Assembly: GCA_018052565.1 (NCBI GenBank)
Contig: JAGPNC010000003.1
Coordinates: forward strand, 587-64,586
Direction of reading: 5' to 3'
Length of the DNA: 64,000 nucleotides
Origin: Candidatus Shapirobacteria bacterium
GTDB taxonomy: Bacteria > Patescibacteriota > Microgenomatia > 0-14-0-10-38-17
In this document: positions 10,743 through 27,742 of the stretch, piece by piece
How positions within the stretch are numbered: position 1 is the first letter of the stretch
Layout: every line of letters begins with the position of its first letter
The notes under the pieces: model-generated
Told to the model about the DNA's origin: nothing
Seen by the model: only the letters and a program-made list of their open reading frames with translations
Databases searched by the model: none
Translations under genes and position numbers: made by a program

Positions 10743-11123
10743 TTGCCAAAAAAAGGAAGAAATGCTAAACTAACAATAATGATGACCAAACTTCTAGCGC
10801 AAGTTGACATTGGCCAAGAAACTCATATTAATCCTACCCAGGGAATCGGCGAGGCTCCTCAATTTAAAAGCATCCTGGGGTTAATTTCTACCATTCTTCC
10901 AAATTTGTATATGGCCGCTGGGTTAATCCTGCTTTTTTTCTTGATTTTTGGCGGCGTTATGGTTATATTAGGAGCAGGCAAGGGCGAAAGCCAACAAGCC
11001 GAGCAAGGCAAGAAAATTATTACCAACACCTTAATTGGCTTTCTGGTTATTTTTCTAAGCTATTGGATTATCCGCCTCGTGGAAATTATCACCGGGGCAA
11101 GAATTTTTAAATCGGGTTTATAA
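10743..11123 (+). CDS. TrbC/VirB2-family pilin-like protein (paralog 1; the true start may be the internal Met near 10779)
   Basis: Two TM segments flank a G-A-G-K-G-E motif. The hydrophobic C-terminal helix is LIGFLVIFLSYWIIRLVE, as in the paralogs. Confidence 0.55.
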   Translation: MPKKGRNAKLTIMMTKLLAQVDIGQETHINPTQGIGEAPQFKSILGLISTILPNLYMAAGLILLFFLIFGGVMVILGAGKGESQQAEQGKKIITNTLIGFLVIFLSYWIIRLVEIITGARIFKSGL

Positions 11124-11129
11124 ATAACC

Positions 11130-11489
11130 ATGGACAAAAAAATAAAGCCGCTTTTAGCGGGAATTGTGGGAGAAATCACCCCCCCCATCACCAGTTACCC
11201 GGATATTGAGCAAGGAGGCCTGGGAAGCTTCTTAAATAACATTTTAAAGCTGGTTACCACGGTGGCAGGTCTTTTTGCCCTTTTTAACTTTATCATGGCC
11301 GGCTATGGGTATATGTCGGCCAACGGCGATGAGAAAAAAATCCAACAGGCTTGGGCAAAAATTTGGCAAAGTCTTTTGGGATTAGTCATTGTGGCCGCTT
11401 CTTTTTTAATTGCCGCTCTGGCCGGCTGGATTCTCTTTAAAGACCCAACCTTTATCATTAACCCAAAAATCTATGGGCCGGGGCAATAG
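11130..11489 (+). CDS. TrbC/VirB2-family pilin-like protein (paralog 2)
   Basis: MAGYGYMSANGDEKK…LLGLVIVAASF motif. Confidence 0.6.
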   Translation: MDKKIKPLLAGIVGEITPPITSYPDIEQGGLGSFLNNILKLVTTVAGLFALFNFIMAGYGYMSANGDEKKIQQAWAKIWQSLLGLVIVAASFLIAALAGWILFKDPTFIINPKIYGPGQ

Positions 11490-11499
11490 TAGGGCGTAA

Positions 11500-11760
11500 C
11501 TTTTAATAAGCAAGCGCAAGGCGCAGCTTGAAATGTCAAATCTCAGGTAGAAATGTCAAAACGGAAATCTCAAAACTCAAAACTACATGTCAAAACTCAA
11601 ATCTAGAAAACAATTTTCTTTAGAAAAGTTTTGCCATTTGACATGTAGATTTACCATTTAAGATTTGCGATTTGAGATTTTTTGCCATTTGCCATTTGAG
11701 ATTTCTACTCGAGTTTTGAGATTTTCCAAAAACTGAGTAATTTAGCAATTGAGCAATTTA
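11500..11760. repeat. AT-rich palindromic spacer element, variant k-mer (aaatgtcaaatctcaaaactc)
   Basis: Arms gaaatgtcaaatctcag…ctcaaaactcaaaac versus gttttgagattt…tttgccatttgagatttc. Confidence 0.8.
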
Positions 11761-12147
11761 GCCATCTATTCTGTGTTTAATAAAATTATCCTCGCCAAAA
11801 CGATAGAAATTGCCCCCAGCGGCGGTCTCGAGGGGCTAGGCCCAACCGCGCCCGCCACTCCGACGGAAGTAGGCGAAAGCACCGCCCATCTTGTCTCTGT
11901 TGTTATTGGCTTTTTCACCCTCGTCGCTGGTCTTTGGTTTCTTTACCAGCTTATTTCAGGAGGTTATGCTTATATGAGCGCCGGCGGCAATAAAGAAAAA
12001 GCGCAGACAGCTAGTCAAAAAATGAGTCAGGCCCTAATCGGGCTGGTAATTGTTGTTTTGGCCATTTTTATGATTAATCTTTTAGGCTACATTTTAGGCA
12101 TTGACTTTTTGAATATTGGTAAAGTGATCCAAAACCTAACTTTTTAA
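11749..12147 (+). CDS. TrbC/VirB2-family pilin-like protein (paralog 3)
   Basis: ISGGYAYMSAGGNKEKAQ…ALIGLVIVVLA. Confidence 0.65.
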   Translation: MSNLAIYSVFNKIILAKTIEIAPSGGLEGLGPTAPATPTEVGESTAHLVSVVIGFFTLVAGLWFLYQLISGGYAYMSAGGNKEKAQTASQKMSQALIGLVIVVLAIFMINLLGYILGIDFLNIGKVIQNLTF

Positions 12148-12160
12148 GTTATTAACTAAA

Positions 12161-12499
12161 ATGGATGCGACACAAAGCGGTAGAATTGGAAATCCAATTG
12201 TCCCTACCGGTCTCCAGCAGCCACCCGCAGGGGCCCCGGGCACTCTTGGCCACATCCTCTCCACCGCTATCGCGTTGGCCTTAATTGGCGCCAGCATTGT
12301 TTTCCTCTTTATTATCATCAGTAGTGGTATTTCCTATATGACCGCCGGGAGTGACAAAGAAAAAAAAGTGGCTGCTTCCGCCCGACTCACCAATGGTGTT
12401 ATCGGCCTAGCGGTCGTTTTTTTCATTTTTGCTATCGCTAAACTTTTCTCTTCCCTTTTTGGTGTTAACCTGCTAAAATTTACTATTCCTAAGCTTTAA
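12161..12499 (+). CDS. TrbC/VirB2-family pilin-like protein (paralog 4)
   Basis: SGISYMTAGSDKEKK…GVIGLAVVFFI. Confidence 0.65.
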   Translation: MDATQSGRIGNPIVPTGLQQPPAGAPGTLGHILSTAIALALIGASIVFLFIIISSGISYMTAGSDKEKKVAASARLTNGVIGLAVVFFIFAIAKLFSSLFGVNLLKFTIPKL

Positions 12500-12517
12500 T
12501 TTAAAAATAAAAAGGAG

Positions 12518-12880
12518 GTGAAAAAAATGTTTAACGTTCTTGCTGTGGCTGGGGAACCAACTATCGTAGTCAGCGCCCCAACGGGATGGGAAGGTCCCGG
12601 AGCCTTAACCGCCGGATCAATTATCAGCGGCGCGATCCAGTTAATATTAATCATCGCCGCTCTTATTTTTTTCTTTCTCTTAATTATCGGCGGTATTCGT
12701 TGGATGACGGCGGGGGGAGACAAGGAAAAAGCGGGCGGAGCGCGGGGTCAGTTGACCTCGGCCTTAATTGGCTTGGCCATTGTTTTTGCCGCCTGGGCTA
12801 TTATTCGTTTAATCGAAACCCTTTTTGGCGTCTCTATCATCAGTGGCTTTACTATTCCCTCTTTCGTGCCAAAACAATAA
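12518..12880 (+). CDS. TrbC/VirB2-family pilin-like protein (paralog 5)
   Basis: IGGIRWMTAGGDKEKAG…ALIGLAIVFAAW. An RBS-like aaaggaggtg precedes the ATG. Confidence 0.7.
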   Translation: MKKMFNVLAVAGEPTIVVSAPTGWEGPGALTAGSIISGAIQLILIIAALIFFFLLIIGGIRWMTAGGDKEKAGGARGQLTSALIGLAIVFAAWAIIRLIETLFGVSIISGFTIPSFVPKQ

Positions 12881-12894
12881 TTTTTAAGCCTAAG

Positions 12895-13269
12895 ATGTCT
12901 CTTAAAAAAGGAGAAGAGGAAGAAAAAAGAATGAGCCTGCTGGCGGCATCTATTACGGGATGGCAAACAAACCCCACCTATGTGGCGGAGGGGGATGTGC
13001 CAACTATTTATGGCCTCGAGGGGGTTGTGACTAATATCTTGAATATCATAATCTCTGTCGTAGGGGCGATCCTTTTGTTCACCCTAATTATGGGCGGGTT
13101 TCGGTATATTACCTCCGGCGGAGACAAAGAACAAACTGCCAAGGCCAAAAAAACTCTCACCTATGGCATTATTGGTCTCCTAGTAGTTATGGGCGCATGG
13201 TTGATTATCCGTCTTATCGAAGAATTTACAGGCTTAAATCTGCATATTTTTCAAATTCCAAAAATATAG
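12895..13269 (+). CDS. TrbC/VirB2-family pilin-like protein (paralog 6)
   Basis: MGGFRYITSGGDKEQTAKAKK…GIIGLLVVMGAW. I trimmed the ORF-track start (12586) to the first in-frame ATG after the upstream gene. Confidence 0.6.
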   Translation: MSLKKGEEEEKRMSLLAASITGWQTNPTYVAEGDVPTIYGLEGVVTNILNIIISVVGAILLFTLIMGGFRYITSGGDKEQTAKAKKTLTYGIIGLLVVMGAWLIIRLIEEFTGLNLHIFQIPKI

Positions 13270-13300
13270 ACACAAACAAAACTGAATTGATAAAAAGAAC

Positions 13301-15436
13301 ATGAAACTCAAGCAAGGGAAAAAGAGTCTTCTGAAAAGAAGAGCCTCTTTTTTCTTACTTCTTTTAATAACGCTTTTCTTGGCGGGGGCTTTTTTGCCAG
13401 AGAAAAAAATTGTCTTTTCTTACGATTACCGCAACGATAGTTCCCATCCCGATCTTAATCTAAATATCAGAAGATACGAACCAATTGATGGCACCAAAGG
13501 GCTCATCGATTTTTCTCATCCCGTTGACGACAAAGCCCCTCAGTTCACTAGCATCTTAGAAAACACCCCTTCCCCGGCAATTATTTCCTTATATCAGGTT
13601 TATAACTGGAGCTGGGAAACAAACTCTCGGGGTAACCTTTGGAAAAAACCCAGCGACGCCCCCGATGACTTTGCCACCCTAATCGGGTTGGAGACCAGCA
13701 ACGGGCAAAACGTTTTGCTCCCGGTATCCGGATATGATATTGGCGGTGGCAACGGGGCAATGGTTATTTATGCAAGCGCCGATAGCGTTACCCTTAAGTA
13801 TACCTGCGAAGACACGATCAGCACCGGTTATACTGTTTATCTTTCCGGTTTTAATGTTAGGCCGGAAGTGCAAAGCCTCTATAATCAGTTGAATCAACAG
13901 GGAAGAGTTTCCCTCCCCGCAGCGCCCGGAGGATATGTCTTGGGAACTGCCACCGGCAATCCTCTTTTAGTCGCGGTAGTTGACACCGGCTCTTTTCTTG
14001 ATCCTCGCTGGAAACGAGATTGGTGGCACGGCGGCGCTTCTTCGGCAAATCAAAGCGCCCAGCTATCTTTTATTAATGTCTGCGAAGTTGGCCTTATCTT
14101 GAAAGGAGCTAGCGACATCTGCTCTCAATTCGAAGTAAGAAGAGAAAGAACAGACAATATTAATAGTCCGTCTCCCATTTCTGAGGGAGAGGAAATAAGC
14201 CAAAGCGTTCTTAACGACGAAATCACCACCATTAACGATTTAATGCCAGATTTTTATTACACTCAAAAGATTATGGCGCAAGTCCTAAAAGGCCTTCTCC
14301 CCCAAGAGCTGGCCGAAAACATCCTTCTTCCCTTTCGCGGCGATGTTTATTTTACCCATTACGCCTGGGGAGAAGAAGCGGGAAACGGCGTGAGTAGCAG
14401 TAACAGTCAAAACAAATATCCCAAAGAAAAAATCTCTCTCACTGCGGAATGGCCACGTCTCGCCGGCGCCGCTCGCGGTCTTCTTTCTTTCTTTCCTCCC
14501 GACAAAAATCCCAACGCCCCCTTAAGCGAATTTAAATTTCGCCTGGAGGATACCGGCTATATAGAAACCGACCCTTATTACTATTGCCGAAAGGGCCAGG
14601 AGACAAAAAAGAAAGTAATGTCTGCGCCGATCGAACAGGATCCGGAATTAAGGCTAAATAATATCTTGGTTAAGGTTATTACCGGTTTCCTTGATTCCCT
14701 AAATAATATTTATTCATATTTTAGAAAAGAGGAAATTAAATATGAAGTCTTTACTATGGGCAGATTGCCCGCCGGAGAAGAAACAACTAAAAACGTTGTT
14801 GATAACGCCAATAAATTCTTGCCCTCTCAAGTAATTGATTCGATAGAAAACTCTTTTAAAAGCGCCCATGATAATGCCAGAGCTATTAAAACCACCTTTA
14901 ATTATAATATCCGCGATGGCGGCGGTGGCGTTAAACCGTCTTCGTTTTTCCTCCTGAATAACTTAAGAGCCCACCACTGCCTTCAGCTTTGTAGCCTCGT
15001 TCCCCCCGATAAAGATGTTTCCTCTCTCGATCCTCTCTGCGTATCCTGCGACCCTAATTACTACCAAACCTATGAGCCGGTGCCTGCTCCTAGAAACATC
15101 CAGAAACTTTGTGTTTGGGATGAACAGGCAGGAGGATGTGATTATTACGACCCCAATGGCGCTCCCAGTTGCAACGGCGATCCTATTTGCGAGGGAGGAA
15201 AATGTAACCCCAATGAATATTTGCTCTCTCCAGATTATGCCAATAATGGCTGTTCTCCGCCATATGGCGAGGGCAACGAGTGCACTAGCGTCTGTCATGT
15301 AGAAACTTTCTCTCCTAATCTTGACGGCACCGGTTACGGTCCTTGTCACTACCTTAACTCTAATGTTTGTGTTCGCAACGATGCCGGAGGCGATTGTAGC
15401 AAGCTTTGCAACTGGGCCTGCTGCGCTTACCAATAA
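13301..15436 (+). CDS. large secreted protein with cysteine-rich C-terminal region (T4SS-associated; possible surface/adhesin component)
   Basis: N-terminal signal/TM segment. The C-terminal 180 aa hold more than 25 Cys, with a GGGG-V motif. Confidence 0.5.
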   Translation: MKLKQGKKSLLKRRASFFLLLLITLFLAGAFLPEKKIVFSYDYRNDSSHPDLNLNIRRYEPIDGTKGLIDFSHPVDDKAPQFTSILENTPSPAIISLYQVYNWSWETNSRGNLWKKPSDAPDDFATLIGLETSNGQNVLLPVSGYDIGGGNGAMVIYASADSVTLKYTCEDTISTGYTVYLSGFNVRPEVQSLYNQLNQQGRVSLPAAPGGYVLGTATGNPLLVAVVDTGSFLDPRWKRDWWHGGASSANQSAQLSFINVCEVGLILKGASDICSQFEVRRERTDNINSPSPISEGEEISQSVLNDEITTINDLMPDFYYTQKIMAQVLKGLLPQELAENILLPFRGDVYFTHYAWGEEAGNGVSSSNSQNKYPKEKISLTAEWPRLAGAARGLLSFFPPDKNPNAPLSEFKFRLEDTGYIETDPYYYCRKGQETKKKVMSAPIEQDPELRLNNILVKVITGFLDSLNNIYSYFRKEEIKYEVFTMGRLPAGEETTKNVVDNANKFLPSQVIDSIENSFKSAHDNARAIKTTFNYNIRDGGGGVKPSSFFLLNNLRAHHCLQLCSLVPPDKDVSSLDPLCVSCDPNYYQTYEPVPAPRNIQKLCVWDEQAGGCDYYDPNGAPSCNGDPICEGGKCNPNEYLLSPDYANNGCSPPYGEGNECTSVCHVETFSPNLDGTGYGPCHYLNSNVCVRNDAGGDCSKLCNWACCAYQ

Positions 15437-15475
15437 AACTTGCTAAAATTAAATTAATGTGTCAGAATAAAGAGG

Positions 15476-16849
15476 ATGAAGAAAAAAATCTTTGAACTAA
15501 TTACTGCCAGTCTTTTCTTCCTTCTGATAAGCGCATCGCCGGCAGAGGCTTTTGTTTCCAGCACGCCCCTAGGCGAAGAGCTTAAGAAGCAAGAATATCA
15601 GGCGGGGAGTTCTGTTTTCAATACCACCAAGGATACTATTGAATCTCTTAATATCCTTATTCTCGGTTCTGGCGACGAAGAGTTGGACCAAAAATTAGGC
15701 GCCAGCGCCATACAGACGACTAATAATCTTATCGCTTCTTTGTATGCCAATCCCCCCGCTTCTTCCGCTTACTACTTAGCTGATATTGGCCAAAGACTTA
15801 ACCTCACCCAGCCGGCTTACGCGCAAGGCGTCGGCTTCCCGGGCCTCACTCCTCTTTTGCCTCTCTGGAGAGCCGCCCGCAATGCCGCCTATATTTTTTT
15901 CATTTTTGTTTTTCTGGTCATCGGCTTTGCCATTATGTTCCGGGCCAAGATTAACCCCCAAACCGTGGTCACCATCCAAAGCGCCATCCCCAAAGCGGTG
16001 GTGGCCTTAGTGTTGGTTACCTTTTCCTACGCTATTGCCGGGCTAATGATTGACCTGATGTATCTGATAATTGGGTTAATGGGTAGCCTCCTTGCCAACA
16101 GCGGCTTATTGACGGGAAATAATTTTCTAAATGAATATGTGGGGATGAATTTTTTTGAGATGATGGGCAAGCTCTTGAAAGAAGGAGAGAGTTCTTGGTG
16201 GTCTATTGCTTTTGGCGTGTGGGAAGGAATGGGAACAGGGAAAGTCGGAAGTAAAATTATTGGAGCGATCACCGGCGCCATTCCCGCTCTTATTTTGGGA
16301 TTAGTTTTGCTTCTTCTAACTTTCAAAATTTTCTTCGCTCTGCTTATGGCTTATATCCAAATAATCATTGCCATTGTCATTGCCCCTTTCCAACTTATGC
16401 TTTCGGCTATCCCCGGCCAAAACACGCTTTCCTCCTGGATGCGTAATTTAACCCAAAATCTTCTCGCTTTTCCCGGAGTAATCTCCGCCCTTGCCCTAGG
16501 AGGAATTCTTGCTAATCTTTCCGGGGACAACCTTTGGATGCCTCCAATTTTAGGGAGCTCAATTAATGCCGATGTCGTTGCCGGTATTCTGTCCTTAGGC
16601 GTTCTCTTGCTAACCGCCAAGATTCCTGACATGATCAAGAGTATGTTTGAGAAAAAGCCCTTTGCCGCCGGCGCGGCAATAGGAGAAGCATTAAAGCCAG
16701 CTAAGACAATGGGGAAAACCGTAGGACTCTATGGAGTAGAAACAGGAGCACAATATATAGAAGGGGCCGCTGAGGCCGCACATAGAACAACTGGTTTAGA
16801 CCTTGGAGCAACGCGAGTAATTAGACGAGTAACCGGACTGAAAAAATAA
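15476..16849 (+). CDS. polytopic membrane protein, VirB6/TrbL-like candidate
   Basis: Signal peptide plus at least 6 TM helices. The position in the T4SS-like cluster is the main argument; the family assignment is by architecture only. Confidence 0.4.
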   Translation: MKKKIFELITASLFFLLISASPAEAFVSSTPLGEELKKQEYQAGSSVFNTTKDTIESLNILILGSGDEELDQKLGASAIQTTNNLIASLYANPPASSAYYLADIGQRLNLTQPAYAQGVGFPGLTPLLPLWRAARNAAYIFFIFVFLVIGFAIMFRAKINPQTVVTIQSAIPKAVVALVLVTFSYAIAGLMIDLMYLIIGLMGSLLANSGLLTGNNFLNEYVGMNFFEMMGKLLKEGESSWWSIAFGVWEGMGTGKVGSKIIGAITGAIPALILGLVLLLLTFKIFFALLMAYIQIIIAIVIAPFQLMLSAIPGQNTLSSWMRNLTQNLLAFPGVISALALGGILANLSGDNLWMPPILGSSINADVVAGILSLGVLLLTAKIPDMIKSMFEKKPFAAGAAIGEALKPAKTMGKTVGLYGVETGAQYIEGAAEAAHRTTGLDLGATRVIRRVTGLKK

Positions 16850-16914
16850 TCTTTTTCTTTCTATCTAAGACTTCAAAATCCCTACGTCTGATAATTTGAT
16901 ACCCTATATTCAAT

Positions 16915-18714
16915 TTATACTTGAAATCTTTCTTTTGAAGAAAAATACCTTACATTCTTGTCTCTTAGGGCCCTTATCAGCGTGCTCCTCTCTAAGAGTG
17001 GTAAATTGATGCTCGGTTTCCGTCTGTTTACATCAGCCACTCCCCCTGTGGCCGCATAAACCGCCCAAGACTTTAGCTTTTCATTTCTCTCAAGGTGTAA
17101 GCGTTTCAAAATATCTAGTAAAGGATCCGCCCATGCCTTGGCCGCACCAAACTTACCCAGTTCTATTGGCTTGCCAGGGTTAAAATATTCAAGTAGGCCA
17201 TTTGCTTTTCTAAGAAGAACAGTTAAATAATTAGTCTTCCACGGATCCGTGCTAACCTGTCTCCAGTCAATCTTTTGCCCCTGTTGTAATCTTAATAATA
17301 AAGTTGGGCCTTCTTCTCCTTCTCTATATTCTTCCCAAAAACTTCTCATCGAGGTGGTCGGATAACATTCGGGGACATAAATTAAAACTTGCCCGTTTTT
17401 AGGCTTATGTTTCCAAAATCTTGAAGGAGAGTCCGCCCCCTCAAACAAAAAGTCTCTTGAGTTCTTTTTCCCTGTTTTATTCTTTATCCTCTCGATCTGT
17501 GATAGCCCCCATTTACCAAAGGCTCCCCACTCTTGCTCTTTACTTGTCTTGTCCTCAAACCTTTCTTGGGGATGAAAAACACTTCGTAAATCATCAGAGC
17601 AAATCGCCGGCGCTAACTCTCCGTGCCTTTTCCTTAATCTCCTGTTGCCAAGACTGCTATACCTCGAATCGACTGATTCCACTAAATTTGAAACCCATAT
17701 CCAATTCCAAGCAATCGCGTCAGCGCTCTTTATTTTAATTCTCAAGGCTCTTAACTCCTCCTCTGCTTTTTTATCGCCTTCTTTAGCTTTTTCAAGTAAA
17801 AGTTTCTCTTGCTCTGCCGTAACGTGAAAAAATCCTCTTTTAAGGGTATACTGGAGGCTCCTTCTAAACATCTGAAATTCTCGACCGCTTGTACACTCAA
17901 CTAAAGATTTTTTTATTCCTCCTCCAATAGGTTCACCTGTTTCTTCATCCCATTCTTCAAATACCATCGTTTCGTCCAATATCGCATTGGCATACCATTC
18001 TAATCCCTCTCTTACTCCCTCAATATTATAAAGAATTTCCATCTGTTCTGTCGTAAGATCAATTAATTCCTGATTTTCAGCCAGCTTTCCAGGGTCTGCG
18101 GAAAAAGCATTTTTATAAAAAGCTGCCCTTGCTAGTCGCCAGCGGGTATCCCACTCTCGACGCCTCTCGGAAGAAAGTCTCGAATAAAAACCAGGCTCCA
18201 TGTTAGGCATAAAGCGGGTATAAAAATCCTGTTGCCATTCTACATCAACCCAGCGTTCTTCTTCTTCTCCCGGGGGTAACCTTCTCAAAATTTCAGCCAG
18301 CGCTTCTTGCGTCTCGCCCCTCTCCACTCCTCCCGCAACGCCTCTCGCTATCTCCCTGTCTGCTGCTTCTCTCAACAGTCTCTCAATTTCCCCGGCAAGC
18401 TCGCCGGCCAAAACCGACCATTCGCCCTCGGGAACTTTCTTATCAAGGTACCAACCATCGCCCTCCTTCAGAAGATTTCCTAAACCTTCTGGGGTTTGCA
18501 TGCGAGGTTGCAAAGCCAGCTGGACCAAACGTAGAAGCTTGTCATTCCCAATCGGCGCCTTTTGGAGAATTTTCCCTTTCTTGTCCTTTTTAGGCTCCAC
18601 CAAACTTCGCAACCTTTCCTCAAAAGGAGGCTCTGCTGGCCGCTCTGGCGATACTACTCTCTGCTGTTGCCCTGTCTCTGATGGTGGTGGCATACCTGGC
18701 TCCCCTTCAGTCAT
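16915..18714 (-). CDS. hypothetical protein (opposite-strand insertion in T4SS-like locus)
   Basis: A 599-aa ORF with long, clean, Trp/Glu/Arg-rich sequence. I recognise no motif. Confidence 0.5.
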   Translation of the reverse strand: MTEGEPGMPPPSETGQQQRVVSPERPAEPPFEERLRSLVEPKKDKKGKILQKAPIGNDKLLRLVQLALQPRMQTPEGLGNLLKEGDGWYLDKKVPEGEWSVLAGELAGEIERLLREAADREIARGVAGGVERGETQEALAEILRRLPPGEEEERWVDVEWQQDFYTRFMPNMEPGFYSRLSSERRREWDTRWRLARAAFYKNAFSADPGKLAENQELIDLTTEQMEILYNIEGVREGLEWYANAILDETMVFEEWDEETGEPIGGGIKKSLVECTSGREFQMFRRSLQYTLKRGFFHVTAEQEKLLLEKAKEGDKKAEEELRALRIKIKSADAIAWNWIWVSNLVESVDSRYSSLGNRRLRKRHGELAPAICSDDLRSVFHPQERFEDKTSKEQEWGAFGKWGLSQIERIKNKTGKKNSRDFLFEGADSPSRFWKHKPKNGQVLIYVPECYPTTSMRSFWEEYREGEEGPTLLLRLQQGQKIDWRQVSTDPWKTNYLTVLLRKANGLLEYFNPGKPIELGKFGAAKAWADPLLDILKRLHLERNEKLKSWAVYAATGGVADVNRRKPSINLPLLERSTLIRALRDKNVRYFSSKERFQV

Positions 18715-21108: not shown

Positions 21109-21119
21109 TATATTTAATA

Positions 21120-21275: not shown

Positions 21276-22052
21276 GTGCCTGACCAAAAAAACCCGCCCG
21301 TCCGCGCCTCTACCCAAGAAGCCATACCTGTCGAGGACATTCGCGACAATTTGGTTATTTTAAAAGACGGCTCGGCGGCGATGATTCTCCAGATTAGCGC
21401 CCTAAATTTTGACCTCCTTTCCCAAAGAGAGCAAGAGGCGCTGATTTTTGCCTATGGCAGCCTTCTTAATTCCCTTAATTTTTCGGTGCAGATTTTTATT
21501 CGCTCCCAAAAAAAAGATATCACCGGTTATCTCTCGCTTTTGGACAAAGCCAAGGACAACCAAACCAATCCTCTTCTTAAAAAATTAATCACCGATTATC
21601 AAAAATTTATCAAAGAAGTGGTTACCAAAACAGAGATTTTGGATAAAAAATTTTATCTGGTTATTCCTTTTTCCTCTCTTGAGTTAGGGTTTGGAGCAGC
21701 GGCAAAAAGCATCACCAAAAGCCTGCCGCTTTTCAAAAAAACCACTCCTTCTCAAAAATTGGACCTAATTGAAGTTTCCCAAAAAGCCCAAACTTCTCTT
21801 CTCCCTAAGCGAGACCATTTGATCCGACTTTTCTCCCGCCTCGGCCTTTCTGCCCGCCAATTAACCACCAACGAACTTATTTATCTTTTCTTCCGGATTT
21901 ATAACCCCAATGCCAAAGGAATCGAGCCGGCTCTGACCAAAGAGTATCTCTCTCCTCTAACTACCAGCCTCTTGATCCCACCGAAAATTGAAGAAGGACA
22001 AGCATCGCCAGATCAGGGGAAACAAAAAGAACAAGCAGTTCGTAATACGTAG
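21276..22052 (+). CDS. hypothetical T4SS-associated protein
   Basis: 258-aa ORF with a GTG start inside the conserved TTTTTCCGTGCCTGACC leader. Confidence 0.45.
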   Translation: MPDQKNPPVRASTQEAIPVEDIRDNLVILKDGSAAMILQISALNFDLLSQREQEALIFAYGSLLNSLNFSVQIFIRSQKKDITGYLSLLDKAKDNQTNPLLKKLITDYQKFIKEVVTKTEILDKKFYLVIPFSSLELGFGAAAKSITKSLPLFKKTTPSQKLDLIEVSQKAQTSLLPKRDHLIRLFSRLGLSARQLTTNELIYLFFRIYNPNAKGIEPALTKEYLSPLTTSLLIPPKIEEGQASPDQGKQKEQAVRNT

Positions 22053-22054
22053 GC

Positions 22055-22270
22055 TGTAATCTCAAATCTTAAAACGCAAATGTCAAATCTAAAACGCAAA
22101 ACGCAAACCTGCCTTGCCGGCAGGCAGGATTCAGGATTAAAAAATGCAAAAATCAAAGATCAAAAATCAAAATGAAAATGTAAAATGCAAAAAGAATTTT
22201 CTTTGGATCTTAACAATTTTTGAATTTTAATCTTTCATTTTGACTTTTAACTTTTGACTTTTAATTTTTT
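22055..22270. repeat. composite spacer with GC hairpin core (cctgccttgccggcagg at 22108-22135)
   Basis: k-mer arms (aatctcaaatct…, …ttttgacttttaacttttgactttt) around the GC hairpin. Confidence 0.75.
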
Positions 22271-22274
22271 TTCC

Positions 22275-24128
22275 ATGCCTAATCCTATCAACCAACTATT
22301 AGAAAAAATTAAACCTCCTAAAAAAGAAAGCCCGGCAAAAGAGGCCGCCGCCGCAAAAGAAAGCGGCGAAACTTTCGGCGCCGGCGTGCCCACCATTAAA
22401 GATATCATCGCCCCCTCGGCCATCGAGGTTGACTTTTCCTATCTTAAAATTGACAATAAATATTTGCGAACTTTTTTTGTAGCTGGCTATCCCCGTTTCG
22501 TTTCCGCTAACTGGCTCTCTCCTTTAATTAATTTTGACCACACCTTGGATATTTCTATGTTTATTTATCCGGTAGAAATAAAAGGAACTATGGACGATCT
22601 ACGCCGGAAAATTGCCGAAATGGAAGCGGAAATTTCCACCGATATCCAGCGAGGGCGAGTTGTTGACCCCTCCACCCAGGCTAAATTGGAAGACGCCTTG
22701 GCGCTTCAGGAAGAATTAGCCAAAGGAACCGAGCATTTCTTCCAGTTCGGCCTTTATATCACTATTCCCGCCGATTCCCTCCAGGAGTTGGAAGAGGTAA
22801 GCCGTGAAGTTGAGGCCACCCTGGGGTCGCTTTTAATCATTGCCAAAACAGCGAGCCTGCAAATGGAAGAAGGTTTTAAAACCACTCTCCCTATTGGCAT
22901 TGATTTTTTGAACATCAGCCGTAATATGGATACCACCTCGCTGGCGACCACTTTCCCCTTTACTTCTTCGGAGCTCACGGCCAACGAAGGAATTTTATAT
23001 GGCGTTAATCAACATAATGGTTCTTTGGTTATTTTTGATCGCTTCAATCTGGAAAATTCTAATGCCGTTATTTTTGGCAAGTCCGGCTCAGGAAAAAGCT
23101 ATCTGGTAAAACTTGAAGCCCTCCGTTCTTTAATGATGGGAACAGAATTAATTATTATTGACCCGGAAGAGGAATACCGCCAGCTGAGCGAGGCCGTTGG
23201 AGGAGAATATATTAAGTTTGGCTTTGGCTCACGGGCAAAAATTAACCCCTTTGACCTTCCCAGCCAGCAATTATCATTCCCGGGTGAAAAAACAGAAAAT
23301 GAACTTGGCTTCAAGCTTCTTTCCCTCCACTCTCTCTTAAAAATAATGTTAGGGGAAATGAGCGCTAATGAAGAGGCCATCCTTGACCGGGCGCTGGTGG
23401 CCACTTATAAAAGCAAGGGAATTACCCCCGATCCTGTTACTTACGAACAGGAGCCGCCGCTTTTAGAAGATCTTTACAAAACTCTTCTGGGAATGGAGAG
23501 CAAAGAAGGTCAACTTTTAGCCACCCGTTTGGAAAAATTTGTTAAGGGTTCGCTGACGGGGATTTTTGACCAGCATTCTAATGTTAATCTAAAAAATCCG
23601 TTTACGGTTTTTTCCCTAAAAGACGTTGAGGGTGACTTAAGGCCGGTGGTGATGTTTATTATCCTTGATTACATTTGGACCAAAGTAAAGGCCGAGATTA
23701 AAAAAAGAATCGTCATTGTTGACGAAGCGTGGTATTTAATGCGTTATCCTGATTCGGCCCAATTTTTGGAATCGATCGCCAAAAGAGCGCGTAAATATTA
23801 TTTAGGCCTTTCCACCATCACCCAAGATGTTCCCGACTTTCTCTCCTCGCCCTATGGAGAATCAATTATCACCAACTCTTCTGTGCAAATTTTAATGAAA
23901 CAGCATCCGGCCGCCATCGACCGCTTAGGGGAGGTCTTTTATCTCTCCGAAGGAGAGAAAAATTTTCTTTTATCCGCCAATATCGGCGAGGGGCTCTTCT
24001 TTGCCGGGGACAATCATGTGGCGATTAAGGTAATTTCCTCCCCCCAAGAGCATAAGTTAGTCGGTTCCAGTCCGAAAGAAAAAACAGTCGCGGTGGCCAA
24101 AGAAGCCAAAGAAACGGAAGAAAAATAA
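22275..24128 (+). CDS. VirB4/TraE/PrgJ-family type IV secretion ATPase
   Basis: Walker A GKSGSGKS and Walker B VIVDEAWY. The N-terminal region is typical of PrgJ/TrsE. I set the start at the ATG at 22275; the ORF-track start (22254) lies inside the repeat. Confidence 0.8.
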   Translation: MPNPINQLLEKIKPPKKESPAKEAAAAKESGETFGAGVPTIKDIIAPSAIEVDFSYLKIDNKYLRTFFVAGYPRFVSANWLSPLINFDHTLDISMFIYPVEIKGTMDDLRRKIAEMEAEISTDIQRGRVVDPSTQAKLEDALALQEELAKGTEHFFQFGLYITIPADSLQELEEVSREVEATLGSLLIIAKTASLQMEEGFKTTLPIGIDFLNISRNMDTTSLATTFPFTSSELTANEGILYGVNQHNGSLVIFDRFNLENSNAVIFGKSGSGKSYLVKLEALRSLMMGTELIIIDPEEEYRQLSEAVGGEYIKFGFGSRAKINPFDLPSQQLSFPGEKTENELGFKLLSLHSLLKIMLGEMSANEEAILDRALVATYKSKGITPDPVTYEQEPPLLEDLYKTLLGMESKEGQLLATRLEKFVKGSLTGIFDQHSNVNLKNPFTVFSLKDVEGDLRPVVMFIILDYIWTKVKAEIKKRIVIVDEAWYLMRYPDSAQFLESIAKRARKYYLGLSTITQDVPDFLSSPYGESIITNSSVQILMKQHPAAIDRLGEVFYLSEGEKNFLLSANIGEGLFFAGDNHVAIKVISSPQEHKLVGSSPKEKTVAVAKEAKETEEK

Positions 24129-24129
24129 T

Positions 24130-24355
24130 ACCTAATTCAAAAGTCAAAAGTCAAAATTCAAAATTACAATTAAAAAGTTAAAAGTTTTTCGCTTTACTTT
24201 TAACTTTTAGCTTTTGACTTTTTCCGCCAGAGGCGCACCCGCCTTGGGCGGGATCAGCCTTGGGCAGAGACCCGCCTCGGGTGGGAACTTTTGACTTTTA
24301 ATTTTTAATTATTACATTGCGTTCTAACTTTTGACTTTTAACTTTTGACTTTTTC
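24130..24355. repeat. composite spacer with GC core (24223-24285)
   Basis: Core tccgccagaggcgcacccgccttgggcgggatcagccttgggcagagacccgcctcgggtggg. Confidence 0.8.
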
Positions 24356-24358
24356 CCC

Positions 24359-27300
24359 ATGCCCGACCAAGACAAATTAATTCTTTCCCGCCAAACGGCA
24401 GAACTCTTGCTTCAGGGAATCGCCTTTTTTAAAGAAAACCCGACCGCCAAAAAATGGAAAAACCTAGATAAAGACCTTTTTATTTTTCTTTGCCGCGAAC
24501 TTTGCCAACTCCCCCTTGAGGAAGAAGAAAATTTTGATGAATATCTTGCTCGTGCCGAAGAACTTTTAAAAAGAATCATCGGCGAAGAACTTACTGCCCC
24601 CTCCCTGCCCCAAAACTTGGAAGAACTAGTTGAGGCCTGGGAAAGCTTTGCTACCCAAAAAGATGCCCAAGCCCCTCCTTCTCCAAGAATTAACCTGCCA
24701 ACAGTCGAGGATTGGATTAAAGCTTTAAAAGAAAAAAGAGTTGAAGAAGAAATTGCTCCCCGGGTGAGAAAGGCTCTTCAAACCACCCTCCCCCACCTTT
24801 CCCAGAAAGACCAGGCCAGCCTTGGGAAACAAATTAGCCAGGAAATTGCCAAATCCCCCTTCTTTGTCCTTCCCCAAGAAGAAAAAGAGGCAGTGGTCCA
24901 AAGAGCAGTAGAAAAAAGCCTTGGGGAAAAGCAAATTGTCCTTGGCGAAGAGCAAAAGCAAGCCTTAGCAAAAGCAATGGTAACCCCTTCTCTTCCTCGA
25001 AAAGAGCCGAAGCCAAAAGAAACGATCACCCCTCCTGTTTTTAAAAAATTCCAAGAACAGATTGAACAAGTTTTAAGAACATCCTTAGAGACAACAGGAA
25101 AAATTGACGAAGAAACCCTTGCTGAGTTGAGTCCTTTAATAAGCGGGGCAGTGGCTTCGAATCTCCCTCTTCTATCCCAAGGCGAATTAGAAGCCCTCAG
25201 CCTAGCCGATAAGAGCAAAATTGCCGAGGGAACAACCACCGCCGCCTTAGGAACGATTGGTAAAGCTTTAGTGGCCAAAGGCATTAGTCTCTCCCCCAGC
25301 CAAACCGCCACCCTTTTAGATCAACTCACCATCACCGCCATCTCTAACTTAGAAAGTTTAGCGCCAGTTCTTCCGGAAAACCGCCTTCCCCAGGAAAAAA
25401 CCCCGGAGACGGAAGGAACCGCCACGCCAATTTTAACCTTTTTGCTCCATCCCAAGGAAACCGCCACCCTTATTCTTAACCCCCAAACAAGAAGAAGCCT
25501 TGAAGCTCTCGACAGAGACCCCTCTCTTCCTTTTAGTCTTGTTTTGGAAGGAGAGGAAACCTCTCGGGGAGAACAAATTAAAAATATTTTTCTCCTAAGG
25601 GGGATTAATTTTCAAAGCATTAATTTAGCCGCCCCCCTTGAAGAAGAAACCCAGGCTTTAGTATTGGCGGCCAAGGGAATCACCAGCGCCGATATTAGTT
25701 CCGCCATCAAAGCCGCCCGGGAGGAAAATTGGCCGGCCGAAGAAATAAGGAGGCTTGAGGAAATTTTTAGCCGTCAACTAAAATTTGAAAGAGATTTTCC
25801 TGGATTAACCCAACGGTTCTTTCGTTTCCGAAAAGCAAAAGAAATCATCTCGGGCCAAAAAAATGATCAAAGGCTACCTTCCCGCCCCTATCTTAAAATT
25901 AAAAGCCAAACCAGCTTTGACACTGCCAGATGGAAAGCCCTGAAAATCATTAATAGTTTTTTGGAGAAAATTGGCCTTGTGGAAAAAGAAACCACTGTTT
26001 CGGGAAAAATTATCCAATCCTCCAAAATCTGGTATTATCTCCAAAAAGCCTTCCAGCCGGTAGCTTCTTTTTGGCAAAAAACAAACATCGGGAAAACCAT
26101 TGCGGATTGGCTTTCAAGACAAACTTATCATTTTTGGCAAGACGCCTTGGGGCAAATAAGAGGATTTAGCCAGGCGGGAGTTAAGAAAGCGGTTCAGGAA
26201 GGAACCAAAAAAGGAGTCACTAAAGCAATCACCTGGCTTTCTACCAAATTGGCGGCCACCAAACTGGGAGCTGCTTTAGGCTCAATTGCCCCGGGAATAG
26301 GCAATGCGATAGGGGCAGTGGCCGGCTTTTTGGTTGATTTAGGAATATCTTTCTTTAAAAAGGGCGGCGAATTTTTAGAAAAACTTACCGGCGGCCAAAC
26401 CGAGGCGGAACAAAAGCTTAAAGTCGCCCTAGGACCATTTTCCTTCTTGGTTTCTCCTTTGGCAATTATTGTTATTGGTGCCGCCATTATCCCTCTTTTG
26501 CTTGTTTTTCACGATTCTGCCAACACCCAAAGTCTTTTTTTTGTTTCAGAGGACGGAGGGGGAGGAGTTCTTCCTCCTTCCTCACGCCTTATTTTGCCTT
26601 CTCTAGAATTGGCTGAGATAATCAAAAGGGCAGCTAAAGATATTTGTGTTCCGGAAGCCCTTCTTCTGGCAATCTCCAGAACTGAGGCCGCAAGGGCGTG
26701 GGGGTATTCCTCTGAAGAAGTCAAACTATTTTCTACCCCTAATTGGTGGGAAACACCCGGAGCTCCTATCTGTCGCGGCCTTTGTTATAACACTTGCAAC
26801 CCGGGAGAATGCAGCCAGTGGGACCCGGATTGCGCTTGGACTAATTATGGCGGCATCAGTCAAGAAGCGGATGTGCGGGGAGTTATGCAGTTTGAATTGA
26901 ACACTTTTAACGGTTATCGCAACGAGCTTTTGGGCATTTTAGGAAGAGAACCTCATCGCTGTCTTATTCCCGATTCCATCTATGCAGCAGCATTAAAAAT
27001 AAAAGCCGATAGCGGCACCGACAACACCCAATGCGATGATTGGTCAGACGAAATCGTCCGCAAAGTAGCCAAGGCCTACTGCGGCTCTTGTGATTCTCCT
27101 AATTGTCCCAATTATTGCGACATTGTCCTTTACTACTATCATGATTATCAAAATTCCCTAGATATTATCACTAATCCCTCCAGCAACCCCAACGGCCTAA
27201 TAGCTGAAAAAATCGCTGTTATTATGGCCAGATGCAACCATGATCCCGATGGCTATGGTTTCATTAACGCTTCGACCCAAAACGCCGCCATTGGTTGTTT

Positions 27301-27742
27301 GGAAAATTCTGACCTTGATTCTTCGGTTAAACAAAGACTAATCGCGATTATTAAAGATCAGGTCAGTAGATACGGAACCCTACAGTGCGTTGGTTTTATT
27401 CAGGCAATAGAAGGCAGTCTCTTTCCTTCTTGCGGTTCAAGCGCCAGTGATTGGGCCCAAGAAAAATGCTGGCAAAATAATAATTACTATTTCCTAAACA
27501 ACAATATTAGTCTTGTTCAGGAGGGAGACATCGCCGTAACTGCCGGAAGCAGTCCCGGCAGCAGTGGCCATATTGGCTTTATTACTAAAATCTATAGAGA
27601 TGGTAGCGGCAATATCCAAAAACTTCTTTTTGTTTCTGCTTGGGGTGGCGGCCAGGACGGGAATGGTGGTAATATTAATGCGAAGATCGTGCCCTGGGAC
27701 TATTTCACGAGCAGGGGCTATCTTTTTATCCATCGAAAATGA
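24359..27742 (+). CDS. T4SS cell-wall hydrolase, PrgK/VirB1-like (lytic transglycosylase + CHAP domains) with long N-terminal linker and TM segment
   Basis: SLT-like E…GVMQF segment around 26650-26900. A C-terminal CHAP-like Cys/His pair (C…GHIGFI). TM helix near aa 690. Confidence 0.65.
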   Translation: MPDQDKLILSRQTAELLLQGIAFFKENPTAKKWKNLDKDLFIFLCRELCQLPLEEEENFDEYLARAEELLKRIIGEELTAPSLPQNLEELVEAWESFATQKDAQAPPSPRINLPTVEDWIKALKEKRVEEEIAPRVRKALQTTLPHLSQKDQASLGKQISQEIAKSPFFVLPQEEKEAVVQRAVEKSLGEKQIVLGEEQKQALAKAMVTPSLPRKEPKPKETITPPVFKKFQEQIEQVLRTSLETTGKIDEETLAELSPLISGAVASNLPLLSQGELEALSLADKSKIAEGTTTAALGTIGKALVAKGISLSPSQTATLLDQLTITAISNLESLAPVLPENRLPQEKTPETEGTATPILTFLLHPKETATLILNPQTRRSLEALDRDPSLPFSLVLEGEETSRGEQIKNIFLLRGINFQSINLAAPLEEETQALVLAAKGITSADISSAIKAAREENWPAEEIRRLEEIFSRQLKFERDFPGLTQRFFRFRKAKEIISGQKNDQRLPSRPYLKIKSQTSFDTARWKALKIINSFLEKIGLVEKETTVSGKIIQSSKIWYYLQKAFQPVASFWQKTNIGKTIADWLSRQTYHFWQDALGQIRGFSQAGVKKAVQEGTKKGVTKAITWLSTKLAATKLGAALGSIAPGIGNAIGAVAGFLVDLGISFFKKGGEFLEKLTGGQTEAEQKLKVALGPFSFLVSPLAIIVIGAAIIPLLLVFHDSANTQSLFFVSEDGGGGVLPPSSRLILPSLELAEIIKRAAKDICVPEALLLAISRTEAARAWGYSSEEVKLFSTPNWWETPGAPICRGLCYNTCNPGECSQWDPDCAWTNYGGISQEADVRGVMQFELNTFNGYRNELLGILGREPHRCLIPDSIYAAALKIKADSGTDNTQCDDWSDEIVRKVAKAYCGSCDSPNCPNYCDIVLYYYHDYQNSLDIITNPSSNPNGLIAEKIAVIMARCNHDPDGYGFINASTQNAAIGCLENSDLDSSVKQRLIAIIKDQVSRYGTLQCVGFIQAIEGSLFPSCGSSASDWAQEKCWQNNNYYFLNNNISLVQEGDIAVTAGSSPGSSGHIGFITKIYRDGSGNIQKLLFVSAWGGGQDGNGGNINAKIVPWDYFTSRGYLFIHRK

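Follow-up and report, generated by a model that had tools for sequence, protein, structure and literature searches.

Does a cluster of type IV secretion system (T4SS) genes with neither a relaxase nor a coupling protein (T4CP) in view represent a conjugative element or a resident apparatus of the cell? This question is raised by a 64-kb chromosome region around oriC of Candidatus Shapirobacteria (Microgenomatia, Patescibacteria), the whole of which is called the window here and supplies all coordinates. The T4SS cluster spans 10743–28380, with two further pilin genes beyond dnaA, and its 711-aa secreted protein is identical to a Ca. Shapirobacteria database entry. The preliminary description recognized a Gram-positive-type T4SS cluster; the cluster exists and most of its component calls held, while those on an SLT domain, an insert, the cysteine count and the pilin count did not. 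As it had stated, VirD4 (T4CP), VirB11 and relaxase were not found, and neither was an integrase, by Pfam or NCBIfam scanning of the ORFs of at least 100 aa in the window. No oriT-associated gene or att-like boundary was present in the 64 kb, and no VirB8-like component was identified among its genes. A T4CP or relaxase could be encoded elsewhere in the genome. Judging from the sequence comparisons described below, we consider it very probable that the region carries a resident, vertically inherited Patescibacteria-type T4SS beside oriC of the Ca. Shapirobacteria chromosome.

The dnaN and dnaA genes lie at 29.7–32.6 kb, coinciding with the cumulative GC-skew minimum, and the GC content over the T4SS cluster (0.42–0.46) is at the level of the flanks; this setting therefore argues for a resident apparatus rather than an integrative conjugative element (ICE), in agreement with the earlier view of the locus. 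The 80 genome loci best matching by VirB4 similarity all belong to Patescibacteria (VirB4 identity 59–95%), and from this ranking VirB4 appears to be a member of the Patescibacteria clade. dnaN was found in 59 of these 80 loci and was convergent on VirB4 in 49 of the 59, the two being separated by a median of 82 bp. In a close relative (L001), VirB4 is about 95–96% and DnaA 93% identical, indicating vertical descent.

Six forward-strand ORFs at 10743–13269 matched the T4SS pilin family PF18895 (E-values from 2.5e-5 to 2.6e-12), five of them over the gathering score, and hydropathy revealed two hydrophobic helices in each. The array begins with pilin 1 (10743–11123; 126 aa by the ORF finder, with an uncertain TTG start; E = 4.5e-7, 30.3 bits vs. 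a cutoff of 26.6) and pilin 2 (11130–11489; 119 aa; E = 3.9e-7), the latter also matching the Mbov_0395 pilin-like family NF045849 (E = 5e-7) and, weakly, TrbC/VirB2 PF04956 (E = 3e-4). A repeat-rich spacer of 260 bp lies just upstream of pilin 3 (11749–12147; 132 aa; PF18895 E = 5.7e-6; NF045849 E = 4.8e-5). Pilin 4 (12161–12499; 112 aa; E = 2.5e-5), which at 24.7 bits falls slightly under the cutoff, shares 50% identity with pilin 5 (12518–12880; 120 aa; E = 1.9e-9), the start of which is preceded by the Shine-Dalgarno sequence AGGAG. Pilin 6 (12895–13269; 124 aa; PF18895 E = 2.6e-12; NF045849 E = 1.9e-8) most likely starts at 12895 and not at 12586, because the latter start would overlap pilin 5 in another frame. 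The six pilins noted previously are thus all present, but two more are encoded on the reverse strand across dnaA/oriC, bringing the total to eight. Pilin 7 (32696–33022; 108 aa; E = 3.4e-10) is 75% identical to its orthologue in L001, and pilin 8 (33171–34253; 360 aa) is an extended form with a cysteine-containing N-terminal extension of ~250 aa and a C-terminal pilin domain (residues 294–349, E = 4.1e-8); long pilins resembling it close the arrays in two related loci (L081 and L082). The pilins of the locus share a mean identity of 28% and a maximum of 50%. Patescibacteria pilin arrays near dnaA/dnaN are reported to comprise 2–11 genes with a mean identity of 25% (PMC12102498).

The gene directly after the array (13301–15436, forward strand) encodes a secreted modular protein of 711 aa with a signal/anchor segment, a beta-rich N module (residues ~45–260), a middle part and a Cys-rich C module. 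The secretion signal and the Cys-rich C-terminus agree with the preliminary description, but the protein has 22 cysteines in total and not >25, of which 18 fall within the C-terminal domain (residues 560–708). AF2 modelled residues 45–260 and 560–705 with pLDDT of 92–98 and 83–92, respectively, and the middle poorly. An exhaustive phmmer search yielded 718 cluster representatives, to which the two modules match separately, and homologues occupy this position after pilin arrays in five related loci (L001, L081, L083, L088, and L089). The protein appears to come from a family of modular proteins associated with pilin arrays, a point that looks new. Its constant position there is compatible with the proposed role of a tip adhesin; the only structural hint, from weak Foldseek matches of the model to M23/LytM peptidases (3slu and 6jmy), is of a peptidoglycan-peptidase-like beta domain and not of a classical adhesin.

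The polytopic protein encoded at 15476–16849 (forward strand; 457 aa) has, by hydropathy, a signal-like N-terminus and at least five hydrophobic segments, in agreement with the preliminary description of it as polytopic. Residues 140–392 gave weak NCBIfam matches to the Mycoplasma ICE transmembrane proteins MMCAP2_0566 (E = 7e-4) and Mbov_0396 (E = 1e-2), whereas no Pfam TrbL/VirB6 match and no PDB sequence match were obtained. We call it VirB6-like from its topology, its position and these sub-threshold profile matches (E = 7e-4 at best); homologues occur in 20 related loci.

Between this gene and PrgI lies what had been taken for an opposite-strand insert. It is a slot, conserved in related genomes, that consists of two reverse-strand ORFs with their own consensus promoter. 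The cytoplasmic 599-aa protein (16915–18714) has 32 homologues of 31–57% identity, none of the 32 with a Pfam domain and the family with many invariant W/D/E/H/C residues; the family always lies between the VirB6-like gene and PrgI, also in L001, L081, and L082. A Foldseek search of PDB and BFVD with the AF2 model of the 599-aa protein (pLDDT 88.2, pTM 0.75) gave no match, so that the protein is predicted with confidence to adopt a fold without a PDB analogue, which again looks new. Its upstream partner, a cytoplasmic 284-aa ORF (18722–19576), had no match in Pfam, NCBIfam, or PADLOC and no homologue among the fetched loci. A perfect sigma-70 consensus promoter, TTGACA-17-TATAAT (19660–19688, reverse strand; 12/12 matches), lies 84 nt upstream of this ORF and is the only such site in 10–29.8 kb.

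The assignments of PrgI/VirB3 and of the VirB4 ATPase were both borne out. The PrgI/VirB3-like protein (20239–21108, forward strand; 289 aa) has an N-terminal two-helix PrgI domain (PF12666, E = 9.5e-7, 29.7 bits vs. a cutoff of 27) and a C-terminal CarboxypepD_reg-like beta-sandwich (PF13620, E = 9.7e-7), with homologues in 67 of the 80 related loci. VirB4 (22254–24128, forward strand; 624 aa by the ORF finder, although the true start is likely ATG 22275) matched the CD1110-family profile NF045971 with 395 bits against a cutoff of 325 and the Pfam TraG P-loop domain PF19044 (E = 2.4e-29), and its Walker A (GKSGSGKS) and Walker B (IVIVDE) motifs are intact. The CD1110 profile, of which VirB4 covers positions 186–734 of 752, is split over two proteins. 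The ORF between PrgI and VirB4 (21276–22052, forward strand; 258 aa), formerly left as unknown, is TrsD-like (NF041427, E = 7.6e-9) and aligns to positions 2–119 of the CD1110 profile and 102–233 of the Mbov_0397 profile; it corresponds to the N-terminal domain of VirB4, encoded here as a protein of its own. Homologues were found in 75 of the 80 loci; the annotation that homologues carry is PF26593 TraC-like.

Downstream of VirB4, a membrane-anchored cell-wall hydrolase of 1127 aa (24359–27742, forward strand) consists of an N domain (residues ~1–686), a membrane segment (687–722), a Cys-rich middle module (731–960) and a CHAP domain (1005–1083; PF05257, E = 1.2e-5, marginal at 26.2 bits vs. 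a cutoff of 26). Of the PrgK-like SLT+CHAP architecture suggested before, CHAP is retained while neither Pfam, even at E ≤ 10, nor phmmer against PDB detected SLT, and the "long N-terminal linker" (640–680 aa) is a cytoplasmic domain because it has no signal peptide. Its modules are common to other loci in mosaic fashion, the Cys-rich one to only one other locus. The next gene (27739–28380, forward strand), the start of which overlaps the hydrolase stop codon, encodes a bitopic Ig-like Big_5 protein of 213 aa (PF13205, E = 3.7e-8) with an N-terminal membrane segment; a hydrolase paired with a small membrane protein recurs across related loci.

Because this type of system was described in 2023–2025, the locus is a new example of the already known pilus-encoding, origin-proximal Patescibacteria T4SS. 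It shares with that system, which Wang et al. (2023) described in Southlakia epibionticum (SEML1_0006-0019) and Quinonero-Coronel et al. (2025) surveyed, VirB4 with neighbouring TrsD-like, PrgI/VirB3 and VirB6-like genes, a divergent VirB2-like pilin array, a wall hydrolase that is not of the VirB1 type and lies downstream of virB4, a place adjoining dnaA/dnaN without relaxase or T4CP, and a derivation from monoderm MPF-FATA. The present Microgenomatia (Shapirobacteria) version differs in its pilin array, split 6 + 2 by dnaN-dnaA, and in its CHAP-type hydrolase with a ~680-aa cytoplasmic N domain; the Cys-rich modular protein and the opposite-strand gene pair are integral here, and no description of them was found in the parts of the two papers that were consulted.

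The Gram-positive (monoderm) type noted earlier is supported, and the cluster is MPF-FATA-derived: the best VirB4 matches on plasmids come without exception from Bacillota or Actinomycetota (31–39% identity). A VirB4 over the CD1110 cutoff, PrgI and a large wall hydrolase are common to the locus and to conjugative MPF-FATA T4SSs (CD1110-type Clostridioides CTn, pCF10 Prg/Pcf, and the Mycoplasma ICE). Matches below threshold connect the pilins with Mbov_0395 (pilin-like), the polytopic protein with Mbov_0396 (transmembrane) and TrsD+VirB4 with Mbov_0397 (VirB4), adjacent families of the last. Unlike those systems, the present one is chromosomal and vertically inherited, has no relaxase, T4CP, integrase or PrgB-type adhesin, and combines a split VirB4 with a greatly expanded pilin family; a conjugative relative in Embleya carries T4CP and relaxase directly downstream of VirB4, the spot where both are missing here. 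Compared with the PrgK, TraG(pIP501), and CwlT-type VirB1 hydrolases, which are likewise large, membrane-anchored, next to virB4 and C-terminally CHAP, no SLT or lysozyme domain is detectable, the membrane segment follows the cytoplasmic domain instead of being N-terminal, and the middle module is the Cys-rich one. The same gene order was found in an unnamed cluster on the 898-kb replicon of Pontibacillus sp. ALD_SL1 (NZ_CP062975, 356 kb region): two pilin-like genes (30–36% identity to the window pilins), a polytopic 779-aa protein, a 116-aa two-helix protein, a 274-aa TrsD-like protein (30%, E = 4e-26), a 621-aa VirB4 (39%) and a 1050-aa wall hydrolase, likewise with no adjacent T4CP or relaxase annotated. 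This cluster differs in its free-living Bacillota host, its M23-type hydrolase, its two pilins only, its lack of a Cys-rich secreted protein and of the opposite-strand slot, and its location, which adjoins flagellar genes and is not near the origin. The occurrence of this architecture on a Bacillota replicon also looks new.

An ICE or its decaying remnant, exporting DNA with the genes for its relaxase and coupling protein beyond the window, would explain why VirB4 belongs to a conjugal ATPase family (CD1110) by NCBIfam and why its nearest relatives outside the CPR are on plasmids, some with T4CP and relaxase adjoining VirB4. VirD4-like genes are moreover present in most Patescibacteria genomes, usually far from virB4, according to the same survey (PMC12102498). 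We nevertheless regard an ICE as very unlikely, given that no mobility gene or boundary was found in the 64 kb, and given the unchanged GC content, intact core genes, synteny with dnaN/dnaA throughout a whole class, and the vertical descent indicated by L001; class-level agreement of the VirB4 tree with the species tree is also reported there (PMC12102498).

Import of host or environmental DNA by a competence T4SS, like Helicobacter ComB or archaeal Ced, needs neither relaxase nor T4CP, and it could draw on the weak similarity of VirB4 to CedB (E = 4.6e-13, far under the cutoff), on a ComFC-like double-zinc-ribbon gene at 40452–41174, and on ABY1 T4SS loci that adjoin comF, recG, and radA (PMC12102498). 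This proposal, raised in the preliminary description, is disfavoured by Southlakia genetics, where competence depends on type IV pili and ComEC, and comEC deletion ends transformation with viability kept, while the T4SS is essential (PMC12857230). Nor does the cluster contain ComEC, DprA or any further gene for DNA processing, and we find DNA uptake very improbable. We hold it very improbable, too, that the VirB2-type pilus and Cys-rich protein do no more than fasten the epibiont to its host, with nothing translocated. The large divergent pilin array, the long extracellular extension on one pilin and the fast evolution of the extracellular parts (identity to L001 of 27% for the 711-aa protein, 33% for the Big_5 protein and 51% for the VirB6-like protein vs. 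96% for VirB4) would suit mere attachment, but VirB4, TrsD, PrgI, and VirB6 are retained and strongly constrained, as they are in systems that translocate, tethering alone leaves the conserved cytoplasmic partners unexplained, and type IV pili already serve Patescibacteria adhesion (PMC12857230).

The resident Patescibacteria-type T4SS thus remains our preferred reading. In Southlakia, no coupling or relaxase proteins of the T4SS are recognisable (PMC10633639; PMC12102498) and epibiotic growth requires the T4SS, pilins included (PMC10633639; PMC12857230); tubular structures, possibly T4SS pili, have been reported at a parasite-host interface (bioRxiv 10.64898/2026.06.21.733656). In the proposed mechanism, the hydrolase of Ca. 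Shapirobacteria would open the cell's own wall, and VirB4, TrsD, PrgI, and VirB6 would pull pilins from the membrane to polymerise a VirB2-type pilus, the formation of which is suggested by pilin homology. This pilus, together with the secreted protein associated with it, may then touch the envelope of a host bacterium. The machine would in this way serve an epibiotic lifestyle, in which it may move proteins or host-derived macromolecules, not relaxase-processed DNA, or be a physical bridge.

The gene cluster at 10743-27742 is a Patescibacteria-clade T4SS, and its feature set coincides with that of the system published between 2023 and 2025. The preliminary description of this DNA had proposed a Gram-positive-type T4SS-like cluster here, which is real and was largely correctly parsed, since profile searches confirm most of its parts. 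A one-genome-per-species search with the VirB4 protein yielded 80 best loci, all Patescibacteria by sequence (59-95% identity), from Chisholm-, Beckwith- and Woesebacteria, WWE3, and other lineages; VirB4 of the close relative L001 (JBMNNJ010000001.1) is 95-96% identical to that of the window. The best plasmid matches are monoderm (31-39% identity), and the nearest non-CPR VirB4s are all monoderm. Judging from this similarity ranking, the VirB4 appears to belong to the Patescibacteria clade within MPF-FATA; Patescibacteria VirB4s are described as monophyletic and as branching within the monoderm class MPF-FATA (Quinonero-Coronel et al., 2025, PMC12102498). Patescibacteria-type VirB4 (59-65% identity) also occurs in MAG records titled "uncultured Gammaproteobacteria", "Pseudomonadales", "Acidimicrobiaceae", and "Nanoarchaeia" (L004, L007, L009-L011, L015, L020, L021, and others). 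Those inspected closely (e.g., L004, L007, L009, L010, L015, and L039) have the same synteny, and the titles look taxonomically mislabelled.

TrsD-like, PrgI/VirB3, and VirB6 proteins are reported as the virB4 neighbors in the Patescibacteria T4SS (PMC12102498). The VirB4 ORF (22254-24128) reaches 395 bits against the CD1110-family model of NCBIfam (cutoff 325), and its translation carries Walker A and Walker B motifs. The ORF immediately upstream (21276-22052), previously listed as an unknown, matches the TrsD family NF041427 (E 7.6e-9, with a score below the curated cutoff), which places a TrsD-like protein beside virB4. It aligns to positions 2-119 of the VirB4 profile, of which the 624-aa ATPase covers position 186 onward, and the N-domain of VirB4 is therefore made as a separate protein; the VirB4/PrgJ-like label thus holds for VirB4, with its N-domain encoded in the former unknown. 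The VirB3/PrgI homologue near virB4 (20239-21108) exceeds the gathering score of PrgI PF12666 (29.7 bits vs 27), as the earlier label had it, and has a C-terminal beta-sandwich besides. The 457-aa VirB6-like protein (15476-16849) is polytopic, as described, and in the expected position; its only matches, to transmembrane families of Mycoplasma ICEs (E 7e-4 and 1e-2), stay below threshold. It did not match Pfam TrbL, and a 17-sequence profile found nothing among PDB sequences. VirB6 is reportedly hard to detect in Microgenomatia (PMC12102498). The start of VirB4 chosen by the ORF finder (TTG 22254) falls within a heptamer array, and the L001 orthologue starts at the residue matching ATG 22275 (MPNP...); judging from that orthologue, the true VirB4 is probably 617 aa long and starts at ATG 22275.

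Arrays of 2-11 VirB2-like pilins have been described in the Patescibacteria T4SS, especially in Microgenomatia and Saccharimonadia, with a mean identity of 25% and a maximum of 54% (PMC12102498). The six pilins first noticed, consecutive ORFs at 10743-13269 (+), all match PF18895 (T4SS_pilin) and each have two hydrophobic helices; the start of pilin 6 is most likely 12895, not 12586. Two more lie beyond dnaA at 32696-33022 (-) and 33171-34253 (-), the latter with an N-terminal extension of ~250 aa. Seven of the eight PF18895 matches in the window are above the gathering score, and the eight pilins share a mean pairwise identity of 28% (maximum 50%), an array of divergent VirB2-like genes. Sub-threshold matches to the Mycoplasma ICE family "Mbov_0395 pilin-like" were obtained for 7/8. 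The array is split 6 + 2 around dnaN-dnaA, and pilins 7 and 8 are beyond dnaA in L001 too, whereas in the related loci L081 (15271-19192) and L082 (17113-21707) all 8-9 genes stand together in a single array beside SpoIID; the difference implies that DNA around oriC was rearranged, with a breakpoint that fell within the array. Immediately before pilin 1 come genes (9027-10727, +) for a 326-aa protein with a zinc-ribbon-like C-terminal end and a GT2 glycosyltransferase (E 3.6e-34), closely packed with gaps of 9 and 15 bp. They do not adjoin the pilin arrays in L081 or L082, and are candidates for part of the pilin operon, e.g., in pilin glycosylation.

A location beside dnaA/dnaN has been noted for the T4SS of Microgenomatia and Paceibacteria (PMC12102498). 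Here, dnaN (29736-30842, -) and dnaA (31270-32613, -) follow virB4 at distances of 5.6 kb and 7.1 kb, in the region where cumulative GC skew is lowest, and the window therefore spans the chromosomal origin. The GC content of the cluster (0.42-0.46) is the same as that of its flanks. Among the 80 related loci, PrgI is present in 67, TrsD in 75, and dnaN in 59, and in 49 of these last dnaN is convergent with VirB4 (median gap 82 bp). As far as sequence can tell, the locus comparisons agree with vertical inheritance. The T4SS core operon (10743-28380, +) runs toward dnaN/dnaA, with oriC at ~30.8-31.3 kb; by GC skew it is on the lagging strand, head-on to replication. Published discussion of this setting deals with gene dosage near the origin, and head-on orientation of the operon does not figure in those passages.

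Scans of ORFs of at least 100 aa in the 64-kb window against Pfam/NCBIfam found no relaxase, coupling protein, VirB11, or integrase, in line with the earlier reading that VirD4, VirB11, and relaxase are missing from it. We do not favor a conjugative element (an ICE or conjugative MPF-FATA system), for which the linked relaxase, T4CP, and integrase/excision functions were not found within the window. In a conjugative Embleya plasmid, the genes next after VirB4 encode a T4CP and a replication-relaxation protein, whereas exactly there the window has neither. A virB4 close to dnaA/dnaN with no relaxase or T4CP nearby is the pattern reported for the Patescibacteria T4SS, in which relaxases are nearly absent and T4CP genes seldom lie near virB4 (PMC12102498). 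A DNA-uptake machine of the ComB or Ced kind is not favored either: its sole signal is a sub-threshold similarity of VirB4 to CedB (48.7 bits vs a cutoff of 700), but CedA and ComEC are absent from the cluster, and neither dedicated import set (ComB with ComEC, or CedA/A1/A2/B) was found. Moreover, a 2025 review stressed that comEC is dispensable for viability (PMC12857230), a point against DNA uptake being what makes the system essential. Of the preliminary choice of DNA uptake or host attachment over conjugation, the dismissal of conjugation thus stands within the window, while uptake is disfavored by comEC genetics.

The T4SS of Southlakia, pilins included, was shown to be essential for epibiotic growth (Wang et al., 2023, PMC10633639). 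We do not favor the reading of the cluster as a pure adhesin. Gene content, intact ATPase motifs, topology predictions, and the conservation pattern are observed. Judging from established T4SS biology and the Southlakia genetics, the hydrolase would open the wall, and VirB4/TrsD/PrgI/VirB6 would draw pilins from the membrane and build from them a pilus that reaches the host; the machine might then move a non-relaxase substrate, or might itself be the physical bridge.

The hydrolase (24359-27742, +; 1127 aa) had been described as PrgK-like, with SLT and CHAP domains and a very long linker. CHAP is retained, marginally (26.2 bits vs a cutoff of 26), and SLT was found neither in Pfam at E <= 10 (residues 735-960) nor by phmmer against PDB (701-1127). 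The membrane anchor is at residues 687-722, and the first ~680 residues, lying ahead of this segment with no signal peptide, are thus a cytoplasmic domain rather than a linker. The protein accordingly differs from a PrgK-like bifunctional VirB1, in which SLT and CHAP follow an N-terminal anchor. Between the downstream gene for an Ig-like Big_5 protein (27739-28380, +) and dnaN are two small ORFs (28791-29724, +; 155 and 138 aa) that both have a hydrophobic segment at the N-terminus; L001 lacks them, and its Big_5 gene directly adjoins dnaN.

Divergence from L001 is strongly uneven. Identity is 96% for VirB4, 93% for dnaA, 92% for the TrsD-like protein, and 83% for PrgI, then 64-74% for the hydrolase, 51% for the VirB6-like protein, 46% for a 599-aa protein, 33% for the Big_5 protein, and only 27% for a secreted 711-aa protein. 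Such a pattern fits rapid evolution of exposed or host-facing parts.

The 711-aa protein (13301-15436, +) was rightly described as Cys-rich at its C-terminus, though with 22 Cys (18 within residues 560-708) and not >25. An NCBI entry from Ca. Shapirobacteria has the identical protein. A word-indexed search had found one relative; orphan status was ruled out by an exhaustive HMMER search, which found 718 cluster representatives. Proteins of 217-1672 aa share the N module (residues ~45-245); the C module (residues ~262-711), in which the Cys pattern is conserved, is found again in proteins of 470-1000 aa that bear signal peptides. N modules are swapped among relatives, and in some relatives the N module is joined to SLT_3 or GH5 domains. 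Family members lie directly behind the pilin array in five other contigs, and in four of them (L001, L081, L083, and L088) directly precede the VirB6-like gene. Structural modelling, as had been proposed, was run with AlphaFold2 (129 sequences) and gave a beta-rich N module with pLDDT 92-98 and a Cys-rich end with 83-92. Foldseek matches to the model were weak and to M23/LytM peptidoglycan peptidases only (3slu, E 3.3e-3; 6jmy, E 9.6e-3). A canonical M23 peptidase was ruled out for the N module, in which the conserved His motifs are absent; its near-invariant residues are P80, P141, G201, P206, D228, P235, W241, and W242. Its profile (A4) found nothing among PDB sequences, and no Pfam or NCBIfam domain was found in the whole protein. 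A tip adhesin, as suggested earlier, would suit the position behind pilin arrays; neither a recognised adhesin domain nor the small helical VirB5 fold was found, the N module being beta-rich and weakly LytM/M23-like. The modularity, the position at the pilin array, the LytM-like matches, and the SLT_3/GH5 partners make a role at the pilus or host wall plausible. On a more speculative and rather improbable reading, these proteins would act with the pilus in binding or opening the wall of the host and thereby determine host range. Relatives (L001 60-2129; P0002 residues 1-170) carry another N-terminal module, blank in Pfam, whose motif NPAFVIALWIEES resembles an active-site motif of lytic transglycosylases.

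The 599-aa protein (16915-18714, -), taken before for an opposite-strand insert, instead occupies a slot conserved in position across related loci; the opposite-strand unit has its own promoter (a perfect TTGACA-17-TATAAT). The protein has 32 homologues. In L001, L081, and L082, the three contexts examined, the family is flanked by the VirB6-like gene and PrgI and runs counter to them; in 14/20 related loci this place is taken by a large protein devoid of membrane segments. Homology between the 599-aa protein and the other slot proteins of Microgenomatia was unsupported: BLAST, iterative HMM, and hhalign were silent (probability below 0.1), and the likeness is therefore one of positional analogy only. 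The AlphaFold2 model is confident (pLDDT 88), with no analogue in PDB or BFVD. A defence system was rejected for the opposite-strand genes, as PADLOC gave no matches. These cytoplasmic proteins could be translocated substrates (effectors), or a substrate receptor replacing the coupling protein. That they and the 711-aa family make up the parts still missing from a functional picture of the Patescibacteria T4SS is an idea we hold to be rather improbable.

The intergenic DNA is full of tandem heptamer arrays (ACTTTTG, ACTTTTA, or AATTTTG; 2-5 copies), e.g., at 8699-8828, 19888-19942, 20202-20236, 21245-21272, 22243-22270, 24138-24354, 31193-31240, 34287-34321, 36198-36326, 39352-39874, 40317-40410, 41255-41360, 44600-44678, and 57230-57284. 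The 13-mer ACTTTTGACTTTT occurs 47 times with at most one mismatch (0.5 expected), and 28/29 arrays of at least three units are intergenic. Arrays stop 3-6 nt short of the start codons for PrgI, the TrsD-like protein, VirB4, the hydrolase, and SmpB, where a Shine-Dalgarno was not seen; the tmRNA gene has another in front of it, at a distance of 14 nt. Pairs in inverted orientation form extended A/U hairpins (z -4.3 to -5.5). None of 87 fetched loci contains the exact 13-mer, though in L001 variant arrays precede the genes for PrgI and VirB4. A promoter/leaderless-mRNA module, a U-rich translation enhancer, and a REP/MITE-like element are candidates. The genes for tmRNA (39385-39749, -), SmpB (39912-40313, -), and a ComFC-like double-zinc-ribbon protein (40452-41174, +) are ~12 kb from the T4SS. 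Two restriction-modification islands, one with a TdeIII-like endonuclease and an N4/N6 methylase and the other of type III (Mod, a 233-aa ORF, and Res), lie at 42637-44260 (-) and 58057-63255 (+); their GC is low (0.34 and 0.30-0.32 vs ~0.43 elsewhere), and both were probably horizontally acquired.

Outside Patescibacteria, the same order and content were found in Pontibacillus sp. ALD_SL1, a free-living member of the Bacillota (replicon NZ_CP062975, 351.8-361.4 kb): two pilin-like proteins, a polytopic and a two-helix protein, a TrsD-like protein (30%), a short VirB4 (39%), and a giant M23 hydrolase, beside flagellar genes and with no adjacent relaxase/T4CP annotated. Judging from this architecture and the Mbov_0395 matches, one branch of monoderm T4SSs may have VirB2-like pilins of its own, and the Bacillota cluster bears on whether they are ancestral there or borrowed from diderm systems.

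No T4SS had been shown to be essential for its bearer before that of Patescibacteria. The present locus is categorically nothing new and offers a clean, contiguous Microgenomatia example; its residual interest is in the unexplained accessory parts, with candidates missed by standard T4SS profiles in the secreted family linked to the pilin array, the divergent cytoplasmic slot, and the cytoplasmic domain of the hydrolase.
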